A stretch of DNA of 57,461 nucleotides from a bacterium (GTDB taxonomy: Bacteria; Patescibacteriota; Minisyncoccia; Phycocordibacterales; Zambryskibacteraceae): contig JAHFOF010000003.1 in assembly GCA_023266935.1 (NCBI GenBank), positions 1 to 57,461 on the forward strand. The letters run 5' to 3'. Shown piece after piece: positions 8,646 to 44,112 of the stretch. Position numbers and translations under genes: made by a program. Numbering within the stretch: position 1 is the stretch's first letter; each line of letters starts with the position of its first letter. The notes below the pieces were generated by a model. That model worked only from the letters and a program-made list of their open reading frames with translations, made no database searches and was not told the origin of the DNA.

Positions 8646-9060
8646 ATTGTAGGTTAGAAGCCTCAATAATTTTGTTCGTACTTGGGCGAAAGAGGATGGC
8701 TTTCTTGGCCACAGAATAAATTATCACCTGGTCCCCCACTTCAGCATTCATAAAGAATGGTTGATACTTCACTTCTTCTAGATTCGTCACCGTTTTAATC
8801 ACCGGCTCTTCGTTCGTGGGTAAAATTATTTCTCCGCGTATTGCGTTTAAAATTTGCTCGGTCGTCGGAGCATTACTTTTAGTCTGATAGGCATTAAAAA
8901 TTTGTAACCCGAAAACAACCAGAAAATAAATGCTAATTAAAACAATAACCCAAATAAATATTTTTTTAAATGAAAATCTCCTTTTCTTTTTGGGAAAATT
9001 TTCTTCTCCAAAAGATTTTGGTCTAAGCACTAATGGTTGATTAAAATTTTGATTGTTCAT
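8644..9060 (-). CDS. small single-pass membrane protein, unknown function, translationally coupled to the giant ORF
   Basis: 138 aa with a basic N terminus (KKKRRFSFKK), one TM helix (IFIWVIVLISIYFLVVFGL) and an ~80-aa extracytoplasmic domain. Its ATG overlaps the giant ORF stop (TAATG at 9058-9062). Confidence 0.6.
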   Translation of the reverse strand: MNNQNFNQPLVLRPKSFGEENFPKKKRRFSFKKIFIWVIVLISIYFLVVFGLQIFNAYQTKSNAPTTEQILNAIRGEIILPTNEEPVIKTVTNLEEVKYQPFFMNAEVGDQVIIYSVAKKAILFRPSTNKIIEASNLQ

Positions 9061-15000: not shown

Positions 15001-18000
15001 TTTGTTTTGTTTATAATCAAACCATCACCATCTGCAGTTATATGAATATATGCTGTGGCAGTCCTCGAAGAAGCGTTGAGTGTCCCTGCTACGGGTCCAC
15101 TCCTTCCTGTTTTGTCATAAATAAACAATCCATTATTTGATGTTGAGTTTCCCTCAAGAGATAGATATTGGCCAACTGAAGTGTTAGAAGAATTCGCAAC
15201 AGCAAGAATCCCAACCGGTGAAGTTGTGCCTATTCCGACATTTCCTCCGAGAGGATTCAAAGCAATGGGATAATAAACACCATTAGCATTACTATCTTTT
15301 TGTTGAATCCAAGTTGTATAAGGGGATGCATTCAACATTCCTACTGAAAGGGTTGTGCCTGCATTACTGTGAATTTTAAATATTGAGCTATCTCCAATAG
15401 ACCCATTGTTGCTACTTGGAGCCGCAGCAGACAAACCATAAATAGATAACACGGAAGATGGTGTCGTTGTGCCTATACCCACATTTCCAGAAGTATCAAT
15501 GGTCATTCGATCATTAGCATTTGTACCTATTCTAAGTGGAACATTATTGAGAGTCCCAAATTTGCCGTACGTACCTGAATCAAAACCTCCTAGATACATC
15601 TGTACATTTCCATCATTTGTAGTTAAACCTCGGCCAAATATTGATAATGTTTCTGCGTGGCCACCAAATAAAGTTCCTGGAGTAGTGGTGCCTATCCCCA
15701 CATTCCCCGCTGCTGTAATTCTCATTTGTTCAGTTAAGGCTGCGGCTCCACCAGAATTTTGAGTGTAGAAAAGCAAATCACCAGAATAATTCCCCGCTGT
15801 GGCAGAACTCTTTACTCCTTGAATGGCGGCAAAGTTGTATGGGGTGGTCGCATTGTTTGTTTGTCCACCGAACATCATCACTGGACCAACTCCCACTCCA
15901 GCCGTCGCAGATGATTCGAGTCTTAATTGTGGAGTATACCCAGTAGTAGCTGTAGGCACCGCACCATTTGCCCCGAGTATATGCAAAGTCCCGCTTGGGG
16001 TTGATGTGCCTATCCCAACACTACCAGCACTCGTGATTCTTAATCGTTCAGTGCTGATATTTGAAGCAGCAGTCATGAATGCGAGTTCGGCTACTCCTCC
16101 CCACGAACCAGACTGTGTATCAATCGCTGCGATGCCTGCACCAGAGTTTGGAGAAGCAGTAGAATTTGTATCTGTGTGGAAGACAATACCAGTCGCACCG
16201 TTCCTCACTCCAACTTGTGCGCGTACAGCCATGGTTGCCCATGAATTTAAATTGGCTGCATTAAATGCGACTGATGCAGTGGTCGTTGCGTTCACCTGAA
16301 GAACTCGAACTGCAGTTTGAGTATTTATTCCTACCAAACCATTTCCATCAATTCTCATCCTTTCAGATACATCGGCCCCTCCATCTGTTTTTGTTTGGAA
16401 TAGTAACTGACCTCCGTTTGTACCCTGAACAACGCTTTGTATGTTACTTAATCTTTGGGTAAGTGCATTTGTATAAAAGTTTATAGATGGAGCAGAACTC
16501 CCCGCAATACCAAGAGTGTCCGAGTTGTTGTCAGCGATGAGAACTGCATTGGTTTGTGTACGAGCAGTAGCCGTGGCTCCCACATGGAGCTTGCTCACAG
16601 GTGCTGGTTGGCCCACACCCACGTTTCCACTAGAGATAACTGTTAATCCTTTGGCTGTATCAAATGTCGTTCCACCGACTGATGCGGATGGCCCAATAAA
16701 TAACCCATTATCTACTTCTTGTTCAGCGATTTCATAATTATTTTTTGTTGGAGAAGCAGCCCCATCTATAAATAACAATCTTCTATATTGACCAGAGTCA
16801 GAAGTAATTCTAATACTTGATTCACTGGCTCCGGATGAAGACACTTCTAATTTGGATTGTGGACTCGTTGTACCTATACCCACTCTACCAGTAGGAGTTA
16901 TCCTCATTCTTTCAGTTGTGCCGTTTGAACCGAAAATCAAAGTACTGGTCGCATAAAGTTCCAAACTATTTGCATCTGAAGAAATTCCCCCCGCAGTAGT
17001 ACCCGCATATCTAAAGGTGAGCAAATCTCCCGTCCCACCGAATCTGTTGAACTCACCCGGAGCAGCATTGTTGGCTGACACTTCGAAGTGACCGTTCGAA
17101 TTGTTATACCCCATGCCTCTTTGGGTATCACCGAATCCGCTTGATGGATTCACCACCGTGTTACCGAACCAAATATTTCCACTGTCTAATATAGTAAAGT
17201 TCGGAACGTCACTATTGTTTGTTGTTTGGAATGTCACTCCTGTCGTTGCTCCAACTCCAGCAACAGAAAGTCGTGCATATGGAGTAGTAGAAGCGATACC
17301 CACATTGCCTCCAGACAAAACCATTCTGATTGTTCCTGAATTTGGTTGTTGTTCAGAAATTCTCAAATCTGAATTTGTTGGAGTCGCAGTATTGGTAACA
17401 TTATAGAAAATATAACCCGGCTGACCAGATGAACCACCTGAGAGTGAGCTGTTTGTAAGTTTGAATCCGTTTGCATTCGAAGCAGCGAGGACGTCCAACT
17501 TGGCAGCAGGACTGGTTGTGCCTACACCAACACTTCCATTTGTAAGGATGGTCACAACATCTGTGCCTGCGAAGTTTCCTCCATTGTTAAATACGAAGGC
17601 AGAGTTGCTTCCTCTTTGACCAAACGTCCATTCGTTTACTCCACCAATGTATGCAGAATATATAGCATTGTTACCAGTAGTATTTGATGATCTGATTTGA
17701 CCGAAGACATCGAGTTTTGAAGAAGGAGAAGTCGTTCCCACACCTACATTGCCGTTGTTTCCTTGAACCAATAAAGCGCTTTTACCAATATTTGTGTTGG
17801 CATTAGATGAGTATTGTATATAAAGAGTACTCCCTACTCCTCCTGATGTGTAGTGATTTATTTCATTGTTGCTAGTAAGGTCTGTGTATTCAGCTGTTCC
17901 GTTGTGCCAGAACCTTGATGCTCCATTATAAACTTCAAGTTTCGCTGTTGGAGTGGTAGTGCCTATCCCAACATTTCCATTGCCATCTATAACCATTCTG

Positions 18001-21000
18001 GAAATATTGCCTGTACCAAAATCCATCGTTGTCGCTATATAAGGAGATTTGGCTGATCGATAATAATCAATATAACCAGATCTCTCCCCGAGTTCTGTAC
18101 CAAAATTTATTGAAGATATAGCAGAACTACGAGAAAGTATGGAGATACTCGATGTCCCATTCGCTGCGCCATTGTTTGCAAACACTGCGACGGTCGATGA
18201 AGCGATGCCTCCGGGTGGTTCTGAATATGTACTCCCCACTACGGTTAGTTTGGCTGTAGGTAGAGTGCTGTTTATACCTACATTTCCTGTTGGAGAAAGG
18301 ATGATGTGCCCAGTGCCTCCGGTGGTGGTGACGGTCAAATTCTGATCGTTGTGAGTAATAGTTGCTTTGTTACTTGCGAGCAATCCTGCACCAAACAAAC
18401 TAAGGATTCCATTTATATTCGTCGCTCCGTTTACAGCCAAGGTAGCGTTCGGAGCATTTGTAGCTATGCCCAATCTGTTGTTCGTATCATCGAAGAAAAA
18501 ATTCGCGTTGTCCTGAATAATCGCTCCGCCTGTCCCAACAAATGGAACTGAACCGAGGGTTAATCTGGTGATGGCGAAGTTGGTAGTAGTAGAATTTGTT
18601 CCCGTCGCGTTTGTAAATGCGAGCCATGGGAAGGTGTTGCTAATGGTAGTAGAGGTAGAAGTGAAATAATCCGCACGAACATCTTGATCGAATATTCCTC
18701 GACCAGCGACGCTTAGTGATGCATATGGTGAAGAGGTGCCGATGCCTACATTTCCTGTGGATGTGATTCTCATTCTTTCAGCCAATGATGAACCGTCTTG
18801 TGTCCCAAATCTTAAATATCCAGTACTTGCTGTATCTTGTCCTGCACCGATTTGAGTAAGAATTTTCTCAACTCCACTGCCGTCGTAAGCATGACTTTCC
18901 AAAGTATAAATTCCTCGACTGCTTGAGAAGTTTGTTGCTAATAAAGTTACATATTGAGGACTGGCAGTATTGTATTGAGAAATATTTCCTGTTAGACTCA
19001 AAAAACTTCCAACCGTATCTGTGCCTGGTGTAGTAGTGGCGATGCCAACCCTTCCATTACTATCAATCGTCATCCTCGCGACGTTGTTTGTAGCAAACTG
19101 AATCGGATACGCACCTTGTCTAGAAATAAGTGCGGCGCTAGGCAACGATCCTCCACCGGTTATCAATGAAGCTGCTCCAGATCCTTCAACTCCGAAATAA
19201 GCTTCGTTTGTAGTGTTGTTCGATGCGCGGTATCGAGTGATAGCATACGATGTGCCAACATCCAAGACATTTATTGTTGGTGATGCACCAGCCACATCAA
19301 GTTTTGTGGCGGGAGTGGTTGTCCCTATCCCAACATTTCCCCCGAAATACGAGATGCCAGAAGATACATATAACGATGAAGTTATCGGTCCTGCAGGTGC
19401 TGTACCTATGAGAACTCCGATTTTATTATTCGAACCGTTTGTAGGTAAAGCGAACAAGGCAGAATACTGATTCGTCACCGTCGCACTCGCACCCTTCGCA
19501 CTCAGAGCATTCACTTTGATGCCGTACAAATTTGTAAGGGTGCCAGCGACGTTTGTTACAGCGAGGTCGATGATGTCGAGCCCTGCTGCAGAAACTGCTG
19601 TCCCACCAGATGGTGGGTTCACATAACTATTTACTGTATTAAATGCTGCCACTCCACCGTTGGCTGGATTGACTCTAAAGTTTGTTAGATCTATGCCTTG
19701 AGTAAACGCAGAATTATTTACACCAGCAGTATAAAGTGCATACGTCGCTGGTGCAGCACCTATACCTATCCTACCCGTTGAATCTACTTGAAGATTGTTG
19801 CTTACAGAGAAAAGTGATGCTGGAGCATTCGTACCTACTCCCACTCTTCCACCAGTCGCTGCGAGCATAGAATTTCCAGAGACATACAAAGTGGAAGATG
19901 TGGCATTAGTACCAGTAGCATTTACAAAAGTGAAATTTTGGAGAGTAGTAGAACCCAATGCTAAATAATTGGTCCCATAAATTGTTCCATCTACTTCAAG
20001 ATCTCCAGCGATAAATCCTGAACGATAATAATTTGTTGACGCGATGTCTGATGGTGATGTTGAACCAACATGAAGAAGAGTCGATGGATTGGTTGTGCCG
20101 AGGCCGACGTTACCTGCTGCTTTTATGGTCACGTTTGGTATGCCCGAAGAAACATTTGGTTGAAGATAAAGGTCTCTCCATGCAGATGAATCCGAAGCAG
20201 CGATGATGCCGTAGTTGTTTGTAGTGTCATATCCAAAACTAATTCTTTGGGCACCGTCTGTACTGCCTGTCACACTAAATTGAGTGAGGTTGGCTCCTGA
20301 GATTCCCCCAGCAACAGCTCCTATCGCAACATCTTTCGCCACCTGAAGTTTAGATGCAGGACTTGTTGTCCCGATTCCAACATTTCCAGAAGTATCTGCG
20401 GTTAATACACTTGATGTTCCTCTAAGAAGTCTCCATCTACCTGAACCATCATTCCCCATTTCCCAAACTGTACCTCCATTCGTACTATTAAGAGTGATAG
20501 ATGGAGCAGTACCCCCAAGACTCAAAACTTGAGAGAATCCATTCAAAGAAGCTGGTGTGGTAGTGCCAATACCAACATTGCCATTATTATCAATTCTCAT
20601 TCTTTCTGTTATCGATCCGCCATTTGTGGTCACGGTTGAAAAGGCGATTGTTCCTGAATCATTTCCACTACTTCCTCTTTGGAATGAAATCCTTGATGAG
20701 GGAACTTGTTGAGTACCAAGTCCGTTGACCGCATCAATTCTAGAGAAAGCAAAATCTTGTGTACCTGTCTGACCAACCAACTCAACAGCAGTTGGGTCAC
20801 CTACTGTTTGAGTTGAGACAGTTAATGCTCGTCCGGTCGTCCCTATATAATTCGGACTTGTTGTACCAACACCAACATTTCCATTACGATCAATTCCTAA
20901 ACCAGTGACTGAAGCATTCGATGAATTTCTTGGTCTAAAAATAAATCCTTGTGAAGCGACTGTCCCATCAATAGCCAAATCTCCTCCCACCGAACCTCCC

Positions 21001-24000
21001 ATAACATTGCTTAAACTAAAGGTAATCGCCCCAACACCTACAGTTGTTCTGTGCAAAGAAAGCAATGGGGTTGAACCGTTGCCATTAACGTCCAAAGGAT
21101 AGGCAGGACTTGGAGTACCTATACCTAATCGTGCATTTGTGTTGTCCCAGAAAAACTTGTTGTTATTTTGAGCGAGGATTCCAGAGGTGCTGGCAAACAC
21201 CACTGAACCCAAAGTGAATGTTGTTGAAAGCTTCCCAGAAATATATTGGTTCGTCGTCGTCGCATTTGTACCAGTGGCATTCGTATAAGCAAGATTGGTT
21301 ATGTTGAAATTCGTACCAAAGAGATTGGTAGAGAAGAAGTTGGTGGTTGTAGCTGAAGTACCAGTCGCATTTGTAAATGCAAGCCATGGGAATGTGTTGC
21401 TGATAGTTGTTGATGTAGAAGTAAAGTAATCCGCTTGAACATCTTGATCGAATATTCCTCTACCGGCAACGCTGAGTGATGCATATGGTGAAGTGGTACC
21501 AATACCAACATTGCCTCCTACAATTCTCATTGCTTCTGCCACAGTGTCATTTGAACTGCCAGATACATTTGTATTAAATGCTAAATAGGTTTCAGTATTC
21601 ACTGCTGGATTTGTATAACCAGAAAGAATACGTGCTGTTCTCCCTGCACTAACTCTAAAGCTAATTTCATTTATATCTGTATTGGAAACTCCATTCAAAC
21701 GGATTTGTGAGCCACCTGATTTATAAATTTCCAATAATGTCGACGGGCTCGTTGTTCCGATTCCAACATTTCCACTTGCAGATAAAATGGTAAATTTTTC
21801 TGTGCCGTTTGGACGAATACCAAAATCTCCAGTGGCTCCATTTGTTACCAAACGATTATAATTTCCATTACCTTCAATTAAATCTATTCCTACAGAAGCT
21901 CCCGCATCATTTCTCTTAAATGTAGCGAGGGGGAATCCTGTCCCAGCCACAGACAACATAGTGCTTGGAGATGAGGTTCCGATTCCCACGTTCCCTCCAT
22001 TTATTGGTTGAAGAGTAAGGTCGCCTGTATTCGCAGATAATTCCAAATCACCTCTTCTTCCTGTCGTAACAAAACCACTACCTATTAGGGTGATATCAGC
22101 TTTCGCCACTCCGGCTTGTTTGAAATTAAAGAATCCATACGAGCTTGCTGTTGGGAAATCTATAGCGATATCTTTCGCATCACCATAAACATGAAGTAAC
22201 GATTGTGGAGTGGTTGTTCCAATGCCGACATTTCCATTGGTTCCAATGCGCATTCTCTCCGCCGTATTTGAACCATTGTAATTCCAAAACTGTATTGCTC
22301 GTGCCGTACCATTACCACCAGCAGTCAAAACTAAATCACCCGCATAACCAGCGAACAATTGAGTAGAACCTGCTTGGTTAGCTCCTGAGGTGGTGAACGC
22401 TGCAGAATAATGATCAATCCCCCCGTAGTTTCCATTTGTACCTGATTGTCCGATTAAAAGTTCTGTATAAGCACCGGTGTTTGAAGTGGCATTATAAAGA
22501 TTAATGGCCGTGTTTCCATTTTGGTCCTTTCTTAGATTAAGAATGTCGTCTGGGACCGCAGTGCCTATACCCAATCTATTGTTCCCATTGTCCCAGAAGA
22601 ATTGAGAATTATTTTGAGCAAGTATTCCAGAACTTGTGGCAAACACGACTGAGCCCGCAGTGAACGATGTCGAAAGTTTACCCGAAACATATGTATTCGT
22701 AGTTGTAGAATTTGTACCCGTCGCATTTACAAAAGTGAAATTCTGCAGAGTAGTAGAGCCAGAACCGAGAAGATTCGCAATAGTAGTTAGCCCAGAAGCA
22801 TCAACCTTTAACAAACTTGAAACTATGTTTGTGGAAGTGGTAGTAGAAACATTAAATATATCTATCTGAGAACCGAGTGCCCCAGCAACATCTAATAATG
22901 CAAGAGGTGTAGTGGTCCCTATCCCCACAACTCCATTGTCTATGATTGTTCTAGTATACAGACCTGTCCATCTCCTCCCAGTAACACCTAGACTACGAGC
23001 CAGATCTGAATCTGGATAAAAATTACTTTGAGATTGAACACTCGCACCATTCAAGAACAAAGCGGTTGATCCACCGCTTATCACCGGATAGCCTGTACCC
23101 GCACCGGTGTTCGAAGTATCACCAAGTGTTAAATGATAATTGCTCACTGGATTCACTAATATATCTATCCTATTAGTAGGAGTGATGGTGCCTCCTATAC
23201 CTATAAAGCCAGAATTGTTTATTAAAAAGTTAGTAGCAGTTGAAGAACCAATCACAAACTGATTCGAAGCATTTCCCGCTGTTGGATTCACTGCGAAGGT
23301 GGCAAATGGTGTAGTAGAAGCGATGCCCACATTCCCTGTCCCGAGAAAAGAAGCTACGGGCGTTCCAGAATATTGAATATCAAATCGTCTTGAGGCCACT
23401 CCACCAGTAGTAAAGTTTATAAGCGCTTGAGAAGTGACTGGGTCATAGTTAAGATCTACAAATCTTGAATTATCTCCAGAATGAGCGACTCGCACCCCAC
23501 CAATTGTCGCTGTATCTGCGGTCACAATAGACAATCTGTTTGCTGGGGTCGAAGTAGCTATTCCTACATTGCCATTCATATTCACATTAAAGAGAGGTAT
23601 ATTCGAGGTGTTTGTCACTCTAAAGACATCTGCAAGTTGTCCAGATTGTGCTCGAACATCGAGAGTCGGGACTGTGGTGGTTGAAGATTGATTTTGGATT
23701 AAGGTTGGTTGATTAAAATTAAATTTATCAAGGAGAGAGTCCCAAGCAATAACTGCGTTCGGAGTGACTAACCCACGGAAGAAAATAAGATTCATATTTT
23801 CTGTGTCCGAGGTAGCGTTATCTGTATTTATGGTCCAATCATTATTTGTGGTGCCACTAATGGCAACTGCAGAACCACTTATGGTGTTCACATTTAAAGT
23901 ATCGATGTACGCTGTTTTCCAATAAAGAGAAGCCGAGCCGATGTCTCTGGTAATGTTGGCATCAGGAACAAGATTAGAGTTGATTCGAGCCGTGACTGTG

Positions 24001-27000
24001 AGAGTATCATTTATACCCGTACCCACACTCAAACTTTTGGCCACGGTGACAGCACCAGCGAAGCTTGAGGTATTGTTGTTTGTAACAGTGAGATTTGAAA
24101 GAGAGGTTGTGCCGAGGTTTGAGTTATTGGAGAAAAGATTAGTACTAAATACATTAGAAGATGTGGCTTGAGTAATATTGGCCAATGAGCCAAAGATGTT
24201 TGCACTGAATAGATTGGTGGTGGTAGCAGACGTGCCAGTGGCTTTATTGAAGATTAAATTTGTAAAGTTAAAGTTTCCACCAAAAAGGTTTGTGGCATAA
24301 AAATTCGTGGTCGTAGCTGAAGTGCCTGTTGCATTTACATATACGAGGCTCTGTATGTTCCCAATGGTACTAAATGAATTTGTTGAAAATAGATTAGTAG
24401 TTGTAGCACTAGTACCAGTTGCGTTTATGTATGTCAGGTTTTGTGTATTAGAGATTGTGCTAAATAAATTAGGAGAGTAGAAATTGTTAGTTGAAGTAGC
24501 ATTAGTACTGGTGCCGTTACTGAATTGAAGAGTGGTGAAGTTTCCATTAGCTCCGAAGACATTCACACCATAGAGAGAAGTGGAGGTACCGTTAGTGAAG
24601 TTGGTGGTACCGAGGTTTGAGTTAGTGGAGAAGAGATTAGTGCTAAAGAAATTAGTTGAGGTTCCGTTAGTGGTTGTAGAGAAGTTAACAAATAGTTTTC
24701 CAATGGTAGAACTACCTATGACTTCGGTGTTAGCAAACAGGTTGGTGGTAGAAGCATTGTGTGAAGCGTAGAAATCGGTGGTGGTGGCTGCAACTGCGGT
24801 GAGGTTAGTGGTGTTTGAAATTGTGCTGAAGAGGTTGGTAGCAAACAAACTATTAGTTGAAGTGGCATTGGTAGAGGTGCCGTTGGTGTAGATTAGTGGA
24901 CCGAAGTTTCCATTAGCTCCGAAAACATTAACTCCGTAAATAGAAGTGGTGGTAGCAGCTCCGAGGTTAGAAACATTGGCAAAGAGATTTTGGGTGTAGA
25001 AGGAGTTGGTTGAAGTAGCATTAGTACTGGTGCCGTTACCGAATTGAAGAGTGGTGAAGTTTCCATTAGCTCCGAAGACATTCACACCATAGAGAGAAGT
25101 GGAGGTACCGTTAGTGAAGTTGGTGGTACCGAGGTTTGAGTTAGTGGAGAAGAGATTTTGAGTGAAGAAACTGTTTGTAGAGGTGGCGTTGGTCGAAGTA
25201 GAGTTCCCATTTATATTTAATCCTCCATTGACTGTTAACTGTTGTCCGACTAGAGAACCAGCCACACCAGCGAAATTTCCATAAAGAAGTGAATATGCTT
25301 TATCATTTGCTGTAGAAGTTTGATCAATGTTATTAACATAAAAAGAGTTCGAACCTGTTTCGTACATTCCAGAAGTGAATCCCAAACCAACGTTAGAACT
25401 ACCATGTACGTTGTTGTACAAACTATAATTTCCTACTCCGACGTTGTAGCTCGGGTTTGGAGAAAAACCAAGCGAACCCAAAGCATTGAGACCCAAGGCA
25501 ACGTTATGATCTCCTCTGTTGTTCTGCATGGTCGAGTATCCAAGAGCAACGTTGTAATTCCCAGAATTACTGGACAATGCGCTGTTACCAATAGCTGTGT
25601 TATAGAGGCCACCATATAAAAGGGTGTAATATCCAATACCCACGTTTCCATAATTATCCCCATTTCCAATGTTCCCCATTGAATTTGTACCAATAGCAAT
25701 GTTATTCCCTCTATTGCCTGAAGTAACCGCAGTCCCCAACGCATTATTACCAATAGCGATACTTGGCGCACCACTACCAGAATCATTAATCAAAGCATGA
25801 TAACCAATAGCAGTATTCCATGTATTATTTGTACCTCCTCCCAATCCAACAGTAACTGTGTGAATTAATGCATCTCCATTCACATCCAATTTTGCCCCAG
25901 GAGTTGTAGTCCCTATACCCACTGCTCCCATAAAGGTTGAGGTGGCGGTTGTTGAGGTCGCCGTGAAGTATGAAGAGAGGACGCTGTCTTCTATAATCGC
26001 TTTTCCTGTAACCGAGAGTGGTCTGTATGGAGAAGTGGTGCCTATACCGAAATTTCCGTTATAATCCAATGTGGCCATGTTGAATCCAGATGCCCCTCTA
26101 GAGAAAATCTGAAAGGCACTTTTGAAAGTTGAAGCATCGTGTTCTATTGTTTTGCCTACAAATCCAGCATATTCAAAAAAGTTACTGGCTCCTACTCCAG
26201 TAGTATTTGTTCTAAACGAAACTACACTCCCGTTGTTGTTCGTTGTATCCGGATTTTCAAAAGCGATGTTGGTGAAAGTGCCTGTGCTACTTGCAAAGAT
26301 ATGCAATTTTCTTTGGGGATTATTCGTGCCTATGCCTAAATTATTCGTAGAACTATTCCAAAAAAGTTCTGAATTATTTTGAGAAAGTAGCCCATTCGCA
26401 CCGATAAAAGGAACTGAACCTTGGGTAAGAGAAGTGTATAAATTACCGAGTATTGCGAGGTTTGTTGTGGTGGCATTCGTGGTGGTTGAATTAGTCAAAG
26501 CCAAAGAACCGTTACTGAGGGTCAAATTATCAAAATTGGCTGTATGAGCATAAAAATTTGTCGTGGTAGCAGCAGAGCCCGTGGCGTATCTAAAGGTAAA
26601 ATCTTGAAGAGTAGTTGAGCTGTTCACCAACAAATTTTGTAAATTAGCATTATTCCCAAAAATATTTGTTGAGAAGAAGTTGGTCGAAGTAGCGTTTGTG
26701 GTAGTCGAATCTCCTACTACGGATCCACTGAAAGTGATGTTACCGAAGGTGGCGTTGTTAGCAAAGAAGTTTGTAGTAGTAGCATTGGTAGAAGTTGAAT
26801 TTGTAGAAACTAAGTTCGTTGAATTTAAATTTGTTGTGGTGGCATCCGTGGCTGTCAATGCTCCAACAGAAATATCGTTTGAAATAATCGAATTTATAAC
26901 AGACAAAGTCGCATTAAAATTTTCAGCAAAGAAATTTGTAGTGGTAGCATTTTTGACTAAAATATCCGTCCCATAAATATTTTTCCCCGAAAGGTCTCCG

Positions 27001-28553
27001 CTCGCACTAAGATCGGTGAATGAACCGCCCTTGGCTATGATGCCACTGCCCACTTCGAGTCCCCCACGAACGTTTATATTTTTTCGCACAGTAAGGTTAC
27101 CCTGGGTGAGCAAATCACTTTTCATATTTACAATACTTTCAAAATATGCCGGACCAAGAACCCTTAGAGTTTGATTAAATTCAGCTTCACCAAAAACAGA
27201 GAGGTCTCCTCCAACATTTAAAGATGCGAGGAGTTTAGTCGCCCCCTTAACCAAAAGAGTTTTACCTACTTCAACATTTCCTTGAAGCTGTACATCTTCT
27301 GTAGTGACACTTCCATTTTTTGTCACAAACGCAAGAGTAAAATCAGTTGATGACGCTCCGCCAAAATATTCTGCGTTCAAATTTTTCACCAAAGTTTTCG
27401 AATCTACTACTATCGGTGCGGTTCCATCTTGGATATAAGAACGTAGTTGGCCTTCTGTTTCTATGTGACCCAAGATAGAAATATTACCTTCTTTGTTTAG
27501 AAGTAGAATTTCGTTCGCATGGGTACCTGGTCTAAAACCCAATACAGTATTCGCATCTTTTAGACCACTCTTTACATAATCAAACGATTTTTCAAACAAA
27601 CCGAAGACAACTGGTACAGGGAAAAGAGTAAAAGCGAGTATCCCTAATACTGCGATTCCGCCGAGGAATCTGCTCGAAAAAACCGTTCTAAAGGATTTAA
27701 AATAATTTCGTTCGGAACGAAAATTGGTCCCTCCACTTAGTTTTTTATCCAAAACCTTTTCAAGAGCTTTTTCTATAACTGTTGTATCTACAGCGGAGTT
27801 TGTACTAGAAATCGTTGATGCCGTAGTGAGAGTTTCAGGAATAGATTCAGTCTGTCCTGGTTTCTCTTTCTTGATTGAAAAAATATTTTTTATAAAACCC
27901 ACAAAAGCCAGCATCTGCGTTTTTATGCCTTCAGACAAAGAATCCAAAATTGATGGACGAATAATTTTTGTTTGATCTGATGATTTTCTTTGTTCAAATA
28001 CCGTGGGCTGATAAACAGATTCTTCTTTCTCTGATGCTGGAAACATTTCTTTCCATCGTCTTTTTAATCTTCCAAAAAAAGTATCAAGAGCGGTTTGTCT
28101 GATAATTTCCGGTTCAACAGTTACTTTTTTCGCTTCTTTTTCTGCTTGTAACTTTTCAAATTCATTCAGATATTCTTTGATATCTTCGTGATACGAACGA
28201 ATAGAATTAACTGGTAGAACAACACTTTGAGTAACACCAACTTTTTCTGAGACTTCTGGTGCCACCGCATTTTGCGGGGTCCCGCCAGAGGCGGTGATTT
28301 GTGGTTCGATCTGTGAAGCCACAGCATTAAAGTTTCCACTTTGAATTTGAGCACGCATCATCTGCCTCTTCATATAATCATCGAGGACGGCGAGTGTGGT
28401 GTACCAAGTGTTATCAATTTTTTTAGCCGAGAGTTTGCCCTTTCGAGCGAGGAGACTTAAATATTCAGAACTATACGGAGTGTGCACGGAAGCCTCAGAC
28501 ATCGAAAGCCACTTCTCGTCATTCGGCCTGTTGTTGTCAAGGTTTGGATTCAA
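9060..28553 (-). CDS. giant (6,497 aa) N-terminally membrane-anchored fibre/adhesin-like surface protein
   Basis: A single stop-free frame of 19,494 nt. The domain content read from the translation is listed in the sub-features. The start is TTG at 28553 (first start after an in-frame TAG ~54 nt upstream). The alternative is the ATG at codon 18 (28502). Confidence 0.9.
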   Translation of the reverse strand: MNPNLDNNRPNDEKWLSMSEASVHTPYSSEYLSLLARKGKLSAKKIDNTWYTTLAVLDDYMKRQMMRAQIQSGNFNAVASQIEPQITASGGTPQNAVAPEVSEKVGVTQSVVLPVNSIRSYHEDIKEYLNEFEKLQAEKEAKKVTVEPEIIRQTALDTFFGRLKRRWKEMFPASEKEESVYQPTVFEQRKSSDQTKIIRPSILDSLSEGIKTQMLAFVGFIKNIFSIKKEKPGQTESIPETLTTASTISSTNSAVDTTVIEKALEKVLDKKLSGGTNFRSERNYFKSFRTVFSSRFLGGIAVLGILAFTLFPVPVVFGLFEKSFDYVKSGLKDANTVLGFRPGTHANEILLLNKEGNISILGHIETEGQLRSYIQDGTAPIVVDSKTLVKNLNAEYFGGASSTDFTLAFVTKNGSVTTEDVQLQGNVEVGKTLLVKGATKLLASLNVGGDLSVFGEAEFNQTLRVLGPAYFESIVNMKSDLLTQGNLTVRKNINVRGGLEVGSGIIAKGGSFTDLSASGDLSGKNIYGTDILVKNATTTNFFAENFNATLSVINSIISNDISVGALTATDATTTNLNSTNLVSTNSTSTNATTTNFFANNATFGNITFSGSVVGDSTTTNATSTNFFSTNIFGNNANLQNLLVNSSTTLQDFTFRYATGSAATTTNFYAHTANFDNLTLSNGSLALTNSTTTNATTTNLAILGNLYTSLTQGSVPFIGANGLLSQNNSELFWNSSTNNLGIGTNNPQRKLHIFASSTGTFTNIAFENPDTTNNNGSVVSFRTNTTGVGASNFFEYAGFVGKTIEHDASTFKSAFQIFSRGASGFNMATLDYNGNFGIGTTSPYRPLSVTGKAIIEDSVLSSYFTATSTTATSTFMGAVGIGTTTPGAKLDVNGDALIHTVTVGLGGGTNNTWNTAIGYHALINDSGSGAPSIAIGNNALGTAVTSGNRGNNIAIGTNSMGNIGNGDNYGNVGIGYYTLLYGGLYNTAIGNSALSSNSGNYNVALGYSTMQNNRGDHNVALGLNALGSLGFSPNPSYNVGVGNYSLYNNVHGSSNVGLGFTSGMYETGSNSFYVNNIDQTSTANDKAYSLLYGNFAGVAGSLVGQQLTVNGGLNINGNSTSTNATSTNSFFTQNLFSTNSNLGTTNFTNGTSTSLYGVNVFGANGNFTTLQFGNGTSTNATSTNSFYTQNLFANVSNLGAATTTSIYGVNVFGANGNFGPLIYTNGTSTNATSTNSLFATNLFSTISNTTNLTAVAATTTDFYASHNASTTNLFANTEVIGSSTIGKLFVNFSTTTNGTSTNFFSTNLFSTNSNLGTTNFTNGTSTSLYGVNVFGANGNFTTLQFSNGTSTNATSTNNFYSPNLFSTISNTQNLTYINATGTSATTTNLFSTNSFSTIGNIQSLVYVNATGTSATTTNFYATNLFGGNFNFTNLIFNKATGTSATTTNLFSANIFGSLANITQATSSNVFSTNLFSNNSNLGTTSLSNLTVTNNNTSSFAGAVTVAKSLSVGTGINDTLTVTARINSNLVPDANITRDIGSASLYWKTAYIDTLNVNTISGSAVAISGTTNNDWTINTDNATSDTENMNLIFFRGLVTPNAVIAWDSLLDKFNFNQPTLIQNQSSTTTVPTLDVRAQSGQLADVFRVTNTSNIPLFNVNMNGNVGIATSTPANRLSIVTADTATIGGVRVAHSGDNSRFVDLNYDPVTSQALINFTTGGVASRRFDIQYSGTPVASFLGTGNVGIASTTPFATFAVNPTAGNASNQFVIGSSTATNFLINNSGFIGIGGTITPTNRIDILVNPVSNYHLTLGDTSNTGAGTGYPVISGGSTALFLNGASVQSQSNFYPDSDLARSLGVTGRRWTGLYTRTIIDNGVVGIGTTTPLALLDVAGALGSQIDIFNVSTTTSTNIVSSLLKVDASGLTTIANLLGSGSTTLQNFTFVNATGTNSTTTNTYVSGKLSTSFTAGSVVFATSSGILAQNNSQFFWDNGNNRLGIGTAVPDDILNLRKDQNGNTAINLYNATSNTGAYTELLIGQSGTNGNYGGIDHYSAAFTTSGANQAGSTQLFAGYAGDLVLTAGGNGTARAIQFWNYNGSNTAERMRIGTNGNVGIGTTTPQSLLHVYGDAKDIAIDFPTASSYGFFNFKQAGVAKADITLIGSGFVTTGRRGDLELSANTGDLTLQPINGGNVGIGTSSPSTMLSVAGTGFPLATFKRNDAGASVGIDLIEGNGNYNRLVTNGATGDFGIRPNGTEKFTILSASGNVGIGTTSPSTLLEIYKSGGSQIRLNGVSNTDINEISFRVSAGRTARILSGYTNPAVNTETYLAFNTNVSGSSNDTVAEAMRIVGGNVGIGTTSPYASLSVAGRGIFDQDVQADYFTSTSTTISNTFPWLAFTNATGTSATTTNFFSTNLFGTNFNITNLAYTNATGTNATTTNQYISGKLSTTFTLGSVVFASTSGILAQNNNKFFWDNTNARLGIGTPSPAYPLDVNGNGSTPLLSLHRTTVGVGAITFSLSNVMGGSVGGDLAIDGTVASQGFIFRPRNSSNASVTGLGIDRNGNVGVGTTSPNYIGTTGRALTVSTQTVGDPTAVELVGQTGTQDFAFSRIDAVNGLGTQQVPSSRISFQRGSSGNDSGTIAFSTVTTNGGSITERMRIDNNGNVGIGTTTPASLNGFSQVLSLGGTAPSITLNSTNGGTVWEMGNDGSGRWRLLRGTSSVLTADTSGNVGIGTTSPASKLQVAKDVAIGAVAGGISGANLTQFSVTGSTDGAQRISFGYDTTNNYGIIAASDSSAWRDLYLQPNVSSGIPNVTIKAAGNVGLGTTNPSTLLHVGSTSPSDIASTNYYRSGFIAGDLEVDGTIYGTNYLALGSTTLQNFTFVNATGTNATSSTLYVSGNSMLAATGGRVGVGTNAPASLFSVSNNLQVDSTGRIGIGAAPATYALYTAGVNNSAFTQGIDLTNFRVNPANGGVAAFNTVNSYVNPPSGGTAVSAAGLDIIDLAVTNVAGTLTNLYGIKVNALSAKGASATVTNQYSALFALPTNGSNNKIGVLIGTAPAGPITSSLYVSSGISYFGGNVGIGTTTPATKLDVAGASPTINVLDVGTSYAITRYRASNNTTNEAYFGVEGSGAASLITGGGSLPSAALISRQGAYPIQFATNNVARMTIDSNGRVGIATTTPGTDTVGSFLSLTGNISQYNTASPQYVTLLATNFSSSRGIYTLESHAYDGSGVEKILTQIGAGQDTASTGYLRFGTQDGSSLAERMRITSTGNVGIGTSSPYASLSVAGRGIFDQDVRADYFTSTSTTISNTFPWLAFTNATGTNSTTTNFAITRLTLGSVPFVGTGGAIIQDNANFFFDDTNNRLGIATNAPNATLAVNGATNINGILSLFGAGLLASNKATITHNDQNLTVTTTGGTGHIILSPTGNVGINSTLPTAKLTVVGSTYSEPPGGIASSTVAVFANNGAANGTSSISILSRSSAISSINFGTELGERSGYIDYYRSAKSPYIATTMDFGTGNISRMVIDGNGNVGIGTTTPTAKLEVYNGASRFWHNGTAEYTDLTSNNEINHYTSGGVGSTLYIQYSSNANTNIGKSALLVQGNNGNVGVGTTSPSSKLDVFGQIRSSNTTGNNAIYSAYIGGVNEWTFGQRGSNSAFVFNNGGNFAGTDVVTILTNGSVGVGTTSPAAKLDVLAASNANGFKLTNSSLSGGSSGQPGYIFYNVTNTATPTNSDLRISEQQPNSGTIRMVLSGGNVGIASTTPYARLSVAGVGATTGVTFQTTNNSDVPNFTILDSGNIWFGNTVVNPSSGFGDTQRGMGYNNSNGHFEVSANNAAPGEFNRFGGTGDLLTFRYAGTTAGGISSDANSLELYATSTLIFGSNGTTERMRITPTGRVGIGTTSPQSKLEVSSSGASESSIRITSDSGQYRRLLFIDGAASPTKNNYEIAEQEVDNGLFIGPSASVGGTTFDTAKGLTVISSGNVGVGQPAPVSKLHVGATATARTQTNAVLIADNNSDTLGIAGSSAPSINFYTNALTQRLSNIQSVVQGTNGGQLLFQTKTDGGADVSERMRIDGNGLVGINTQTAVRVLQVNATTTASVAFNAANLNSWATMAVRAQVGVRNGATGIVFHTDTNSTASPNSGAGIAAIDTQSGSWGGVAELAFMTAASNISTERLRITSAGSVGIGTSTPSGTLHILGANGAVPTATTGYTPQLRLESSATAGVGVGPVMMFGGQTNNATTPYNFAAIQGVKSSATAGNYSGDLLFYTQNSGGAAALTEQMRITAAGNVGIGTTTPGTLFGGHAETLSIFGRGLTTNDGNVQMYLGGFDSGTYGKFGTLNNVPLRIGTNANDRMTIDTSGNVGIGTTTPSSVLSIYGLSAAAPSSNNGSIGDSSIFKIHSNAGTTLSVGMLNASPYTTWIQQKDSNANGVYYPIALNPLGGNVGIGTTSPVGILAVANSSNTSVGQYLSLEGNSTSNNGLFIYDKTGRSGPVAGTLNASSRTATAYIHITADGDGLIINKTNAGSTQGVPLTIINKSSADSFQINNDSSVLFNVTSGGNVGIGAAVPSSKLQLVGTTSYSDPSLTHGTAAMFSMQSGSGTDLVFGSMQNSPFTAWIQHRHATNDGSTYALSLQPLGGNVGIGTTGPHSPLEVVGRVIGSNLVVSPYGNLNDTTGVANTLQFGNYTASAFVTSSADSYIYKTSNVFSGLAAQTLIFQTRSDSTGGGFAFVGGSTPAPLMYIQGSGNVGIGSTTPFATFAVNPTAGLASNQFVVGSSTATNFIITNSGNVGIGTVAPVAKLDVVGVNGVTSQFNSIISARGGNIANNSNSFEWGHANASGYGSTLGYYYSAGTPYLAFNGSAGTNINTFKTNGIQASIILSNVAGGMQFGNVASASADNQTFVPLVTMLASGNLGIGTTTPASQLVLDSVASTGLQIATGGIQDLVITGSTANNKIDSRRSNPLYFQINSATKMTIDGSGNVGISTTTPSALLTIAKASAGINVGDSSSALTLISTDSQGIDIGSQLHFSGNTNGTDAANPFATIAGRKENGTNGNYSGYLQFSTSNSSGTVGEGMRITSTGRVGISTTTPFAMLDVYQTTGIPAAFFSDSAGGSGGSLRLISASLVGQDFFLQLFSNDRTTSGKVMHFTGANGGNDTLDIDLSLARVGIGTSSPLSKLSIQSSGATSATTGLNVANSNGTSALLVRDDGNVGIGSTTPNTKLVVVGTTTARDIIPDANLTYNLGTSAQRWNQSWVGTQNIGTSTWSLSADNSGSLAFNNQANAAGTQTVTFAQNGNVGIGVTQPLFDLDVAGNSRFYGVSTTPSSLNVFALSPSWSSGVSANGGAIPIAISSTTVLSYTIGSIYMGKTDGTNVLFYPAFSMATVDANFYGGTYANFAVDVLDSTRIIVVYNYSSWGVKAVVCNYNATTVTSCGTPVTMGTFAQPVTVDVKSVGGGSFLATYTDYTAGGIDVRLSTTSGTTISLGTQNAVRSVPSYSATNPGIMLFSATTTRAAIHFYSAAPWESVVIVNFSGGVLTCGTPYATNAANSSYIGSAQPLSDTSFINFVHNSNVSLDAMLVTVTGTSTVATSTVASLSTVYSATVSSAFLDGSNIAVGYGSNFRILGVSSTTLVSIGGEQSAGSTILGLTPLTNTSFLAGFTSTDQIFKVRTADTTYANQTFDPSTASIIFPGMQYGNQTVWSNMSAKLDSTRHILFTAQNGSGYQVRVGQKSGSSLSYGPSGVYVAATSTVSWSPSAIAVLDANTVALINTKSIASVYWVDVAVCTISVITPSCGSSISFAGGYSAVPVVGIAAASAGQFVVSYGLPSGSATSVTARTVQYTGTTINSFGNPVTVASNINVADMAMTAINGTTTQFALVYNETSGNPTQAQGKVIIGGVNGSSISLGSLENYATATSTKLAIASPLPGTLFIASDYSSNNNALISYVGVSSTNLSVTSTTTSSIGGYSTNPWRLSALDSTHLLFNSGTKNRVINVSSSGVVGISSEQTVYANSSTITDFNSLSDFLAIDSSSFLVRYHTDGAGPGPYSENLILQTMDPNAFYYQKQALVINSTGTSVDGSPQVGIGTNNPLYTLHVSSVNGSVAGFSVIGGGTCTINPTNTALTCTSDARLKTNISTIASSTEILRRLRGVNFSWKNDETMANHIGFIAQDVQSVVPELVTTGADGFLQVNYLDFAPILANAWNDLDLRVTDLENLLNKGNVGIGMGTTTPLNKLVVAGGVSIGSDFNLLAPENGLIVEGQVAFGTSTPNADSALTVDGAITFFGLPETKAGDKFLCISDNGEVSVGDVCGQASTTPSISNSDMLAWFNDASTTMASTTDRVIALETRLSTLEQMFASSTGFVATASTSPSIIADTLTAMGASIVDGVTHFKQLAVESLSTYALSVGTKEKPTGITVYDQVNGAPYCMKVVNGQAVTTAGDCQTYPGAAVYNVPVDTTPTTPTPPVDTSTTTPSTDTSSSTPGTVDTSASTTTSTDSGQANPTI
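9063..9218 (-). other. Pro/Thr/Ser-rich C-terminal tail of the giant protein
   Basis: VPVDTTPTTPTPPVDTSTTTPSTDTSSSTPGTVDTSASTTTSTDSGQANPTI*. Confidence 0.85.
9927..10196 (-). other. Peptidase S74 / intramolecular chaperone auto-processing domain (aa 6120-~6209)
   Basis: TSDARLKTNISTIASSTEILRRLRGVNFSWKNDETMANHIGFIAQDVQSVVPELVTTGADGFLQVNYLDFAPILANAWNDLDLRVTDLE matches the SDxRxK...GFIAQE...P family pattern of endosialidase and tail-fibre C-terminal chaperones. The Ser codon is at 10194-10196. Confidence 0.8.
10340..12640 (-). other. non-fibrous Cys-containing repeat domain (aa ~5305-6072), candidate distal head
   Basis: About a dozen ~55-60-aa units of the form hydrophobic strand + LDSTR-like turn + ...G(T/S)x(I/L)(S/T)xG... 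Examples: VDVLDSTRIIVVYNY..VVCNYNATTVTSCGTPV, AKLDSTRHILFTAQ..GQKSGSSLSYGPSG, SALDSTHLLFNSG..VSSSGVVGISSEQ. Confidence 0.5.
24491..24638 (-). repeat. 148-bp direct repeat, copy A
   Basis: Identical to 25010-25157 except for one position (T at 24521 versus C at 25040). The offset is 519 bp, i.e. 173 codons, in frame. Confidence 0.95.
25010..25157 (-). repeat. 148-bp direct repeat, copy B
   Basis: See copy A. Both encode ..FSTNSNLGTTNFTNGTSTSLYGVNVFGANGNFTTLQF(G/S)NGTSTNATSTN.. Confidence 0.95.
25330..25820 (-). repeat. YadA-head (Hep_Hag)-like short repeats, aa ~913-1075
   Basis: Nine units of N-[TVI]-[AG]-[ILV]-G spaced ~14-20 aa apart: NTAIGYHAL, SIAIGNNALG, NIAIGTNSMG, NVGIGYYTL, NTAIGNSALS, NVALGYSTMQ, NVALGLNALG, NVGVGNYSLY, NVGLGFTSGMY. 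Confidence 0.5.
26350..26960 (-). repeat. S/T/N-rich low-complexity tract 1 (aa ~532-735)
   Basis: Degenerate units such as NATTTNFFAENFNAT, NSTSTNATTTNFFANNATFGN, TTTNATSTNFFSTNIFGNNANLQN. Confidence 0.8.
27594..27668 (-). other. single transmembrane helix of the giant protein, aa 296-320
   Basis: FLGGIAVLGILAFTLFPVPVVFGLF is preceded by a K/R-rich segment (RSERNYFKSFRTVFSSR). By the positive-inside rule the N terminus is cytoplasmic. Confidence 0.75.
28368..28511 (-). other. N-terminal winged-HTH (HTH_17/MerR-excisionase-like) domain of the giant protein, aa ~15-62
   Basis: WLSMSEASVHTPYSSEYLSLLARKGKLSAKKIDNTWYTTLAVLDDYM follows the same pattern as the stand-alone HTH proteins at 29353-29601 and 41739-41984. 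Confidence 0.6.
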
Positions 28554-28850
28554 TGTGTTTTTGTTATGCCGATACGGTATATCGGATACGAAATAGTGTT
28601 GCTATTATTATATATTTCAGAAACCTATTCTCCTAATGTTTTTTGATTATTTCTGTGGATAAATCAATTTATTTTTAGAAAATTTTTTATTTTTTATAAT
28701 TTTAAATCAAATGAAATAATACGTGAATTTATATAAACATTTTTAAAATTTTAATTTTTAATGAAAATTTGTTGATTTTTTGGAAAATTTTTCTTTTATA
28801 AACTATCTGCTACTTTAATAAACCTTGATAGTTTTATCTATCAACGTTGG
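28554..28850 (-). promoter_or_regulatory. 297-bp AT-rich upstream region of the giant ORF (promoter, curved DNA, one consensus DnaA box)
   Basis: AAAATTTT-type tracts occur at 28678, 28744, 28763 and 28783, the last three 19-20 bp apart. TGTGGATAA lies at 28654-28662. The best -10 on the minus strand is TATAAT (plus-strand 28605-28610), with only a weak -35. Confidence 0.45.
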
Positions 28851-29291
28851 CTAGAAACCTACGTATTTTAATGATATCAAATTTAGTGCTCCAATTACCT
28901 TTCCTTTGATACTCCATTTATCTATTGGTCCTAATTCTCTTGAATCTATACTGACATTTCTATTGTCTCCCATCACATAATACTCTTTGGGATCCAATAC
29001 TATAGCTGAAGTAGTCGTACCATTTAACCTTTCTCCAGGTAAACCAATTACTCGCTTTAGAATTTTGTTTGGATATATGCGAGGTATGACTACTACTATG
29101 TCTCCATGGGCAGGTTCAGTCCACCAATAAGCTACTTTGTTTATAAAAACAAACTCTCCCGAATGAATGGTTGGTTCCATAGAATCTCCACTTACTACGA
29201 AGCCTTCTATTACAAAAATACGAAGAAAGAGCGCGCAAATAAAGACTACAATAACTATTGATAGAATTTTTTGTTTGGTGGTTGCTTGCAT
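28851..29291 (-). CDS. lepB: signal peptidase I
   Basis: 146 aa with an N-terminal TM helix, GDSMEPTI (catalytic Ser box), KRVIGLPGE (Lys box) and GDNRNVSIDSRELGPI. Confidence 0.85.
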   Translation of the reverse strand: MQATTKQKILSIVIVVFICALFLRIFVIEGFVVSGDSMEPTIHSGEFVFINKVAYWWTEPAHGDIVVVIPRIYPNKILKRVIGLPGERLNGTTTSAIVLDPKEYYVMGDNRNVSIDSRELGPIDKWSIKGKVIGALNLISLKYVGF

Positions 29292-29352: not shown

Positions 29353-29601
29353 ATGAAAGAAATTTATTTCTCTATAAAAGAAGCCTCCGAGGTTTTAGGG
29401 GTCTCTCCTCTCACCCTTCGAAATTGGGACAAGTCTGGTAAATTTAAAGCCCAGAGACATCCGATGAACAATTATCGAGTTTACAAACTTTCGGCTCTAG
29501 AAGATATCATTAGAGACATCGAGGGAGGAACTCAAAAAAGTAACGCGGGGAAAGCAGAAAAGATTATTAAGAAACTTATGATAAAGCACTTAGAAGACTA
29601 G
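29353..29601 (+). CDS. small MerR-family/HTH DNA-binding protein
   Basis: 82 aa. FSIKEASEVLGVSPLTLRNWDKSGKFKAQRHPMNNYRVYKLSALEDIIRDI fits the MerR N-terminal HTH pattern. Its 3' end overlaps the gatB 3' end by 26 bp (convergent). Confidence 0.75.
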   Translation: MKEIYFSIKEASEVLGVSPLTLRNWDKSGKFKAQRHPMNNYRVYKLSALEDIIRDIEGGTQKSNAGKAEKIIKKLMIKHLED

Positions 29602-39841: not shown

Positions 39842-39850
39842 TGTTTACCT

Positions 39851-41068: not shown

Positions 41069-41083
41069 AAATAAAAGGATTAC

Positions 41084-44111: not shown

Positions 44112-44112
44112 T

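Follow-up and report, generated by a model that had tools for sequence, protein, structure and literature searches.

The 57,461-nucleotide (nt) stretch of DNA analyzed here, called the window below (positions 1 to 57,461 of contig JAHFOF010000003.1, assembly GCA_023266935.1, from a member of the Zambryskibacteraceae in the Patescibacteriota), contains a 19.5 kb gene whose product joins a predicted DNA-binding helix-turn-helix (HTH) domain to a giant surface fiber. We lean towards the view that this gene encodes a fiber under membrane-tethered negative autoregulation, acting through a palindrome in its own promoter. The HTH subfamily found at the head of this giant protein is statistically linked to a CCGATA palindrome at the promoters of its own genes, and, going by this linkage, we think it probable that the subfamily binds CCGATA. 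The interval 27594-28553 covers exactly codons 1-320 of the giant gene, and together with the DNA just upstream it comprises the following elements:

9060..28553, minus strand: giant open reading frame (ORF) of 6,497 residues (aa), with a TTG start at 28551-28553 that is conserved as TTG in orthologues

28338..28514, minus strand: predicted winged HTH, aa ~14-72, from AlphaFold2, Foldseek, HTH_17 and a profile search

27669..28337, minus strand: predicted cytoplasmic linker, aa 73-295, from homologue sequences, composition and a predicted local distance difference test score (pLDDT) of 55-70 beyond residue 72

27594..27668, minus strand: sole strong hydrophobic segment, aa 296-320 (FLGGIAVLGILAFTLFPVPVVFGLF), a transmembrane (TM) anchor or the h and c regions of a signal peptide

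28569..28585, no strand assigned: 17-bp palindrome CCGATA-N5-TATCGG, candidate operator, 15 nt upstream of the TTG and unique in the window

28607..28612, minus strand: TATAAT box, likely the -10 element, 21 nt upstream of the palindrome and conserved in orthologues

The original prediction, made from the letters of the window, had pointed to the DNA upstream of the giant gene as a place where the HTH might bind, and the candidate operator at 28569-28585 was found precisely there. The upstream DNA of orthologues keeps the same order of TATAAT, about 21 nt, palindrome and start codon, and a TA[TCA]AAT lies 16-23 nt upstream of the palindrome in 27 of the 32 loci with an N5 spacer. As a simple sigma-70 scan of the window did not call a promoter for the giant gene and found no -35 match, we placed the promoter by the conservation and spacing of the TATAAT box. 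Across 684 kb of related loci CCGATA-N5-TATCGG occurs in 31 copies, all of them just upstream of an HTH gene, with 0.04 copies expected. CCGATA half-sites are about ten-fold denser around the 5' ends of HTH ORFs (7.9 per kb) than elsewhere (0.77 per kb), and 72 of 79 loci have at least one half-site there and 68 of 79 at least two; the 80 genome loci surveyed are almost all of the single-HTH type. In HTH genes that are less closely related, the half-sites are 3 nt apart and the outer bases are conserved as well, TTATCCGATA-N3-TATCGGATAA. We also searched in the reverse direction for metagenome loci holding the exact ATCCGATANNNTATCGGAT, of which there are at least 120, so that the fractions are those of a sample: among the matches listed an ORF with the HTH module begins 24-360 nt downstream of ATCCGATANNNTATCGGAT in 38 of 120. 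Among 81 other listed loci, 48 have the site inside an open frame of at least 150 aa and the contig GC content runs from 0.26 to 0.74; this location and wide span fit chance matches.

The palindrome lies downstream of the -10 box and is hence probably transcribed, and it could form a stem of 6-7 bp, so that it might be read as an RNA hairpin in the 5' leader that acts on stability or translation and has no connection to the HTH. We give this possibility almost no credence: 1) the predicted fold is weak (-7.3 kcal/mol, z=-1.3), with 22 of 200 shuffled sequences folding as well; 2) the arms are invariant in sequence without compensatory change, while the adjacent positions lack covariation and mismatches are frequent at the adjacent pair; 3) extra half-sites occur beside or upstream of the -10 box in some loci and are therefore probably outside the transcript. 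Rfam likewise gave no match to the leader in the window or to the leaders at seven related loci. In a set of loci with long leaders (L046-L048, L100, L110, L111 and L117) a G+C-rich hairpin does lie between the palindrome and the start of the HTH gene; after this hairpin comes a conserved element, GGAATGCACGCC…AAACGAAGC…, some 60-80 nt long and without an Rfam match, which could be an attenuator or a small RNA.

A palindrome might equally be read by a protein encoded nearby, and one such candidate adjoins the giant gene's neighborhood:

29353..29601, plus strand: MerR82, gene for an 82-aa MerR-type HTH protein (Pfam MerR, 9.4e-10), divergent to lepB

MerR82 is 88% identical in L001, the closest related locus, and its 3' end overlaps the 3' end of the convergent gatB by 26 nt. 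A MerR82 gene adjoins the HTH-TM gene in 53 of the 80 genome loci and in 37 metagenome loci selected by the motif, across very different Patescibacteria. On this basis it could be argued that MerR82 or another factor reads the palindrome, while the N-terminal HTH of the giant protein tethers the nucleoid non-specifically at the base of the fiber in the manner of RacA or binds a protein partner as the HTH of RodZ binds MreB; RacA, a chromosome anchor, is indeed among the structural neighbors of the domain, and a nearly invariant recognition helix is also compatible with a common partner other than DNA. Several observations nonetheless make this alternative improbable. First, of the loci with 6 kb of sequence upstream, at least 12 have both the palindrome and the HTH gene but lack MerR82. 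Second, outside Patescibacteria, the Fic-HTH genes of Anaerolineae and of a Nanoarchaeota metagenome-assembled genome (MAG) have everted TATCGG…CCGATA repeats at their promoters and no MerR82 neighbor. Third, the motif is mostly lost where the recognition helix varies: of the families with variant helices, P0122, P0126, P0165 and P0174 lack CCGATA throughout the 300-350 nt that precede the gene and P0132 has an imperfect site, a depletion relative to canonical loci with a Fisher P of 8e-4 in a comparison that spans five families from genomes of very different GC content. Two further multi-HTH proteins, both with the canonical helix, retain it, with a perfect palindrome abutting the ATG in P0133 and an imperfect one in P0141. 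Fourth, in the long-leader loci the palindrome is 300-450 nt from the MerR82 start, yet at the promoter or leader of the HTH gene.

Two details of these loci deserve mention in their own right. The Fic-associated repeats (L050, L067, L075 and L202, comprising Anaerolineae, the Nanoarchaeota MAG and one contig) take the form TATCGG(TATCGG)…CCGATA(CCGATA) around a -10-like box upstream of fic. In L212, no CCGATA precedes the gene of a three-HTH protein whose recognition helix is the variant T[AT]RHLSLMARQGKL, and a different inverted repeat AGTAATA…TATTACT is present at about 1110-1160 between two TATAAT boxes; this repeat may reflect a changed specificity.

The domain that we propose as the reader of the palindrome is divergent. 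Neither Pfam nor NCBIfam matched an HTH to aa 1-400 at E<=1, and only the isolated 65-aa segment could be aligned to HTH_17 (PF12728), with profile positions 1-50 of 51 matched to aa 15-64. Many relatives of the window protein score above the cut-off of that family at 34-47 bits (among them P0133 47 bits, P0165 45, P0141 45, P0137 42 and P0168 34), and an HTH profile that we built from 16 homologous segments retrieves these HTH_17-passing relatives as well as many 83-aa proteins with a precomputed PF12728 match. AlphaFold2 models aa 11-70 as strand-helix-helix-strand-strand-helix with block-mean pLDDT of 85-97, the elements being a strand at 15-17, a helix at 18-21, the recognition helix at 29-38, strands and wing at 44-46 and 49-53, and a helix at 54-71. 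In a Foldseek comparison with the PDB the top geometric match of this model was the excisionase RdfS (root-mean-square deviation (rmsd) 1.9 A, probability 0.97), with BldC, RacA, Tn916 Xis, TraN and CarH among the others, all of them winged helices of the MerR/excisionase type. For RdfS, Xis, BldC and RacA the rmsd ranges over 1.8-2.1 A, with 44-50 residues superposed; no Foldseek E-value is better than 0.07, a weakness due to the small size of the domain (about 50 residues). A search of PDB sequences with the HTH profile recovered nothing at E<=10. The recognition helix has the consensus PYSxEYLSLLARKGK, nearly invariant across the subfamily. Thus the HTH that the original prediction had placed at the N-terminus is borne out by an HTH_17 alignment of 16 bits, by relatives that pass the HTH_17 cut-off and by a confidently modeled winged-HTH fold, and the N-terminal domain of the giant ORF is predicted to be a divergent HTH_17, that is, a winged HTH of the MerR/excisionase type. 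The kinship also proposed between this domain and two stand-alone HTH proteins of the window holds at the superfamily level but not as close similarity, with BLASTP giving E=0.043 for one and no match for the other, and hhalign recovering the correct register at P of about 0.006-0.008, too weak to carry the claim. The second of these free HTH_17 genes (41709-41984) is immediately upstream of the Wzm/Wzt genes and does not match the fiber-type HTH profile.

Beyond the HTH the linker is poorly conserved, variable in length and rich in S, K, E and T, and it ends with a conserved ALEKVLDKK motif and a K/R-rich stretch. The hydrophobic segment that follows includes the only stretch of the protein with a Kyte-Doolittle hydropathy above 1.8 (aa 302-320, score 2.36). 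In the giant protein itself 8 K+R are found in the 30 residues preceding the segment and 4 in the 30 following it. We judged the topology by the positive-inside rule using 15 residues on either side of the segment in 95 family members: the mean K+R count was 3.18 on the N side versus 1.92 on the C side and the mean D+E count 0.73 versus 1.91, with K+R richer on the N side in 64 of the 95 relatives and on the C side in 12 (Wilcoxon P=3e-10). A hydrophobic 12-mer in the first ~40 residues was seen in only 1 of these 95. The predicted orientation with the N-terminus inside and the HTH in the cytoplasm is thus well supported, and the single TM helix with a cytoplasmic HTH that had been read from the window stands.

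The same architecture recurs widely, which answers a question that the original prediction had raised. Our HTH profile retrieved 4,477 protein clusters (at 50% identity) with E<=1e-3 and 1,932 with E<=1e-10, almost all from Patescibacteria, and the 545 matching loci in species-representative genomes are likewise nearly all from this group. Among 86 proteins of at least 400 aa, taken from the best 150 profile matches plus earlier matches, 79 begin with one to three HTH copies, which are followed by a single hydrophobic segment and then an ectodomain; the segment lies 130-410 residues from the start in these 79, a TM segment precedes the HTH in none of the 86, and the largest HTH-TM protein reaches 6,890 aa. 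The ectodomains include tail-fiber/S74, collagen and LVIVD propeller types and an intein, and mostly have no recognizable domain. The HTH module is further found at the C-terminus of Fic proteins (P0016, P0099 and P0118) and by itself, in proteins about 83 aa long. One locus, L201 (1501-3252), has a split version of the HTH-TM-fiber fusion: the gene for a stand-alone HTH protein of 83 aa shares 4 nt with the start of a second gene, which encodes a short tail, a TM segment and a fiber with Peptidase_S74; genes for a LexA/UmuD-like S24 peptidase and a Y-family polymerase lie upstream of this HTH gene, and the contig, having 50% GC, may therefore lie outside Patescibacteria. The NCBI pipeline already labels some members 'helix-turn-helix domain-containing protein'. 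The literature that we searched contained no description of the HTH-TM family, its palindrome or the lepB link described below, an absence that is no proof of novelty, and the parts of a giant-gene preprint and of a Patescibacteria review that our search terms reach do not describe the family or the palindrome.

A gene of this length must be very costly for so small a cell. In the mechanism that we favor, the giant protein would have a cytoplasmic winged HTH (aa ~14-72), a flexible linker of ~220 residues, one hydrophobic segment and then the fiber outside. The HTH subfamily would recognize CCGATA half-sites, and fiber N-termini accumulating in the membrane would bind the operator between the -10 box and the start, blocking their own transcription; loss of fiber protein would relieve the repression. 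The operator, just downstream of or flanking the -10 box, is hence in a repressor-like position. A recognition helix that is near-invariant across thousands of proteins makes sense under this proposal because all of them would read one half-site at their own promoter. The disordered, poorly conserved linker would let the HTH reach DNA, which in very small cells should be held near the membrane.

Against this proposal several points have to be set: 1) we infer, rather than observe, that the HTH itself binds the palindrome, that binding represses and that the tether persists in the mature protein; 2) the HTH and the palindrome are linked through co-occurrence in sequence, which is guilt by association, and MerR82, the conserved neighbor of most loci, could be the true binder; 3) many of the loci behind the HTH/palindrome counts are phylogenetically related, so that their independence is overstated, and the variant-helix comparison has the narrow base given above; 4) the HTH_17 score of the window segment (16 bits, E=0.015) is under the 27-bit gathering cut-off; 5) the sign of regulation is read from operator position alone; 6) a palindrome implies a dimer, whereas the fiber is probably trimeric; 7) cleavage by signal peptidase I (SPase I), if it occurs, would detach the HTH from the mature fiber.

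The original prediction had offered a different function, namely that the fiber reports surface or host contact directly to DNA. Such a sensor of the ToxR/CadC style, in which fiber signals cross the TM helix to an HTH that controls a regulon of other genes, would agree with the topology, which is that of the widespread single-pass transmembrane transcription regulators (PMC10269533), and with an exposed, fiber-like ectodomain. We nevertheless consider it highly improbable. The same HTH-TM head is found on many unrelated ectodomains, and its HTH also on Fic proteins and free proteins; a disordered linker of ~220 residues is poorly suited to conformational signaling; the palindrome occurs almost solely at the HTH gene in the 684 kb of loci and the 57-kb window, leaving the protein's own promoter as its only recognizable target; and an OmpR-type domain is absent from the Pfam matches. 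Unrelated ectodomains together with no other visible targets hence give contact sensing no support.

The self-repression that we favor could be coupled to export in the fiber subgroup, depending on whether the hydrophobic segment is an anchor or is cleaved. The gene directly upstream of the giant gene bears on this point:

28851..29291, minus strand: lepB, signal peptidase I (Peptidase_S26, 1.9e-30)

This lepB has the same position and strand in 32 of the closest loci (L001-L036), and its translation includes what we take to be the catalytic SPase boxes. It is short (146 aa) and has its own TTGATA-16-TATAAT promoter (29336-29309). By pattern reading, the segment of the giant protein has a positive n-region, a core, a helix breaker and small residues at -3 and -1, as in SPase I signal peptides, with a candidate site at G318|L319 in the window. 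Among 66 distinct sequences of the fiber subgroup, every one has G, S or A at -1, 63 have V, S, I or A at -3 and 52 have Phe at -2; 49 have Pro at -7, and 52 have Pro or Gly at -5. The K/R stretch is followed by a hydrophobic core of ~15 residues, and position +3 is acidic. A low-confidence AlphaFold2 model of aa 261-620 shows a helix break at PVPVVF. In the export-coupled variant the segment would make up the h/c region of a signal peptide, behind 295 residues of n-region that include the HTH; cleavage at G318|L319 by the neighboring signal peptidase I would free the fiber and leave an HTH-linker-TM stub in the membrane, whose abundance or turnover would report completed exports. We regard this variant as tentative, and SPase I cleavage in the fiber subgroup, as read from these residues, as somewhat doubtful. 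The core starts at residue 296 rather than at the extreme N-terminus behind a short n-region, and known bacterial signal peptides do not come near an n-region of this length that includes a folded domain; a hydrophobic span of 25 residues suits a TM anchor equally well; the SPase-like motif was not seen in HTH-TM proteins with other ectodomains; and the adjacency of lepB could be simple conserved gene order (gatB-merR-lepB). The end of the segment could equally be a subgroup-specific TM end. The release of the HTH by proteolysis, one of the options first proposed for this protein, does gain some support from the SPase-like site and the lepB synteny. In L214, in another genome, a giant gene whose 4,384-aa product has three HTH copies is closely followed by a gene for a site-2-protease-type Peptidase_M50 (14667-15293), which would become relevant if HTH stubs were freed by intramembrane proteolysis. 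Were cleavage to occur, the HTH would be 'left behind by' rather than 'fused to' the fiber, with the DNA-binding reading unchanged. In its most far-reaching form, which we think unlikely, the promoter, CCGATA operator, HTH, linker and segment would together constitute a portable 'self-limiting export leader', in the fiber subgroup a cleavable signal peptide of 318 residues. If true, such a leader would stand before thousands of Patescibacteria surface-protein genes, with the leftover stub repressing and the promoter counting each export.

The ectodomain of the giant protein, about 6,180 residues, includes two defined regions:

27144..27593, minus strand: conserved first ectodomain, aa 321-~470, from alignments, with the motifs …NTVLGFRPGTHANEILLL…GHIETEGQLRSY…APIVVDS…NLNA…

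10032..10196, minus strand: Peptidase_S74 intramolecular chaperone, aa ~6120-6174 (Pfam PF13884, 3.5e-16, 59.7 bits against a cut-off of 22)

AlphaFold2 of aa 261-620, which covers the hydrophobic segment and the first ectodomain, gave a mean pLDDT of 38 and is unusable as a model. The body of the ectodomain matches PHROG tail-fiber families, down to 2e-37. In view of these matches and the terminal Peptidase_S74 the label 'giant fiber' is fair, and the giant extracellular fiber of the original prediction is upheld.

The inclusion of the HTH in the protein depends on the start codon. The codon 18 of the giant ORF is an ATG, and the sole in-frame start 5' of it is the TTG at 28553. At the equivalent position orthologues start with TTG, often with N-P-E-L next, or with ATG, and in several of them residue 18 is Leu rather than Met, so that these have no internal start. 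A translation start downstream of the HTH, which had been named as a way in which the fusion could be spurious, is hence contradicted by the conserved TTG and by these Leu18 orthologues; initiation at Met18 would in any case still retain HTH helices 1-3. Between the window and L001, codons 18-54 differ in 20 codons, all but three synonymously, and codons 1-17 show four third-position changes, all synonymous. The TTG has no Shine-Dalgarno-like sequence, which is uninformative because such a sequence within 25 nt of the start is found in only 1 of the 34 long ORFs of the window; the organism appears, from these upstream sequences, not to use Shine-Dalgarno-led initiation.

The locus lies among housekeeping genes of a small-genome bacterium (lepA, murJ, gatB, obg and secA), and its closest relatives are all MAGs of Patescibacteria (the candidate phyla radiation), mostly of the Parcubacteria/Paceibacterota type. 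One further element precedes the promoter:

28653..28662, minus strand: DnaA-box-like TTATCCACAG, about 40 nt upstream of the -10 box

Perfect copies of TTATCCACA(G) number four in the window (28653-28662, 543-551, 36545-36553 and 40006-40014), and the motif with at most one mismatch is over-represented there, with 39 occurrences versus 17 expected. Most related loci keep it as TT[AG]TCC[AC]CAG, in some at the -35 distance from TATAAT. Two large TPR membrane proteins, one with an O-antigen ligase (Wzy_C) domain, are encoded at 5816-8155 (minus) and 36609-38783 (minus), one on each side of the fiber locus (at distances of about 1 kb on the downstream and about 8 kb on the upstream side), which fits a cell-surface neighborhood. 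A polysaccharide cluster at 38804-56385 (plus) encodes a GDP-mannose dehydratase, epimerases, a Wzm/Wzt ABC exporter, methyltransferases and glycosyltransferases, and the G+C content of the window falls to 0.32-0.37 from about 46 kb on, within this cluster. A 138-aa ORF at 8644-9060 (minus) begins at the base where the coordinates of the giant ORF end (9060); its match to DUF7248 is weak (E=4.7e-4), and among the related loci L028 alone has a relative of this ORF, which may encode a small membrane partner of the fiber. Rfam identifies two tRNA genes, at 1303-1374 (minus) and 1461-1533 (plus).

To our knowledge almost nothing has been established about gene regulation in Patescibacteria, whose many large surface proteins are believed to act in host-cell attachment. 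The unexpected feature here is a self-targeting design that extends across the lineage. If true, a single near-invariant DNA-binding head with a matching operator on thousands of proteins would amount to a lineage-wide regulatory principle, and would widen the class of membrane-bound transcription factors to self-regulating structural giants; if the segment is cleaved, a signal peptide would double as a transcription factor. The idea of the operator is directly testable with a 17-bp oligonucleotide and an 80-residue peptide. The HTH profile and the palindrome should also help annotators to find true 5' ends and promoters, as many of these genes are at present annotated with an internal ATG as their start or are broken up by contig ends.

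Single-pass transmembrane transcription regulators are a known and widespread class, and, broadly defined, a transmembrane transcription regulator is a protein that has a DNA-binding domain together with one or more TM regions (Demey et al. 2023, PMC10269533). The giant protein, with its predicted HTH and one hydrophobic segment, falls within this broad definition. It shares with ToxR, TcpP and CadC an N-terminal cytoplasmic DNA-binding domain, one TM helix and an extracytoplasmic C-terminal part, so that the likeness to ToxR/CadC drawn by the original prediction holds for the single-pass topology with the N-terminus inside. It does not extend to family membership, because the HTH class differs: ToxR, TcpP and CadC have an OmpR/PhoB-type winged helix and a compact sensor domain and control other genes, whereas the giant protein has a HTH_17/MerR-type domain, a structural fiber of 6,180 aa and its own promoter as the only visible target. 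Neither aa 1-400 nor the isolated segment has a Pfam match to the OmpR/PhoB-type winged helix (Trans_reg_C), and in place of a ligand-sensing ectodomain and a regulon we find a tail-fiber-like ectodomain and an operator almost only at the protein's own gene.

RodZ resembles the giant protein in having an N-terminal cytoplasmic HTH, a linker, one TM helix and an extracytoplasmic domain; its HTH is of the XRE type and binds MreB, not DNA, and Pfam gave no match to RodZ-type domains in aa 1-400 or in the whole giant protein. The best structural matches to the modeled domain are RdfS, Tn916 Xis, BldC and RacA. BldC and RacA are DNA-binding proteins without effector domains, and RacA anchors DNA at a site in the cell. 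Unlike the giant protein, none of the four is integrated in the membrane or fused to a surface protein, they bind different DNA sites, and RacA reaches the membrane via DivIVA without a TM segment of its own. The extended signal peptides of autotransporters share with the giant protein an N-terminal extension before the h/c region and small residues at -3 and -1; known extensions of this kind have about 25-60 residues and no folded domain, as against 295 residues including a DNA-binding fold. Phage tail fibers and endosialidase-type spikes are comparable to its ectodomain by the PHROG tail-fiber matches and the C-terminal Peptidase_S74, but the giant fiber is encoded in the chromosome beside housekeeping genes, is inserted in the membrane and exceeds typical phage fibers roughly five- to tenfold in length. 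Toxin-antitoxin/Fic loci resemble the giant gene in the same HTH subfamily at the C-termini of Fic proteins, the same half-sites at the promoter and a would-be self-repression; in the giant protein, however, the self-repressor would be the first domain of a membrane-inserted structural giant rather than a soluble antitoxin.

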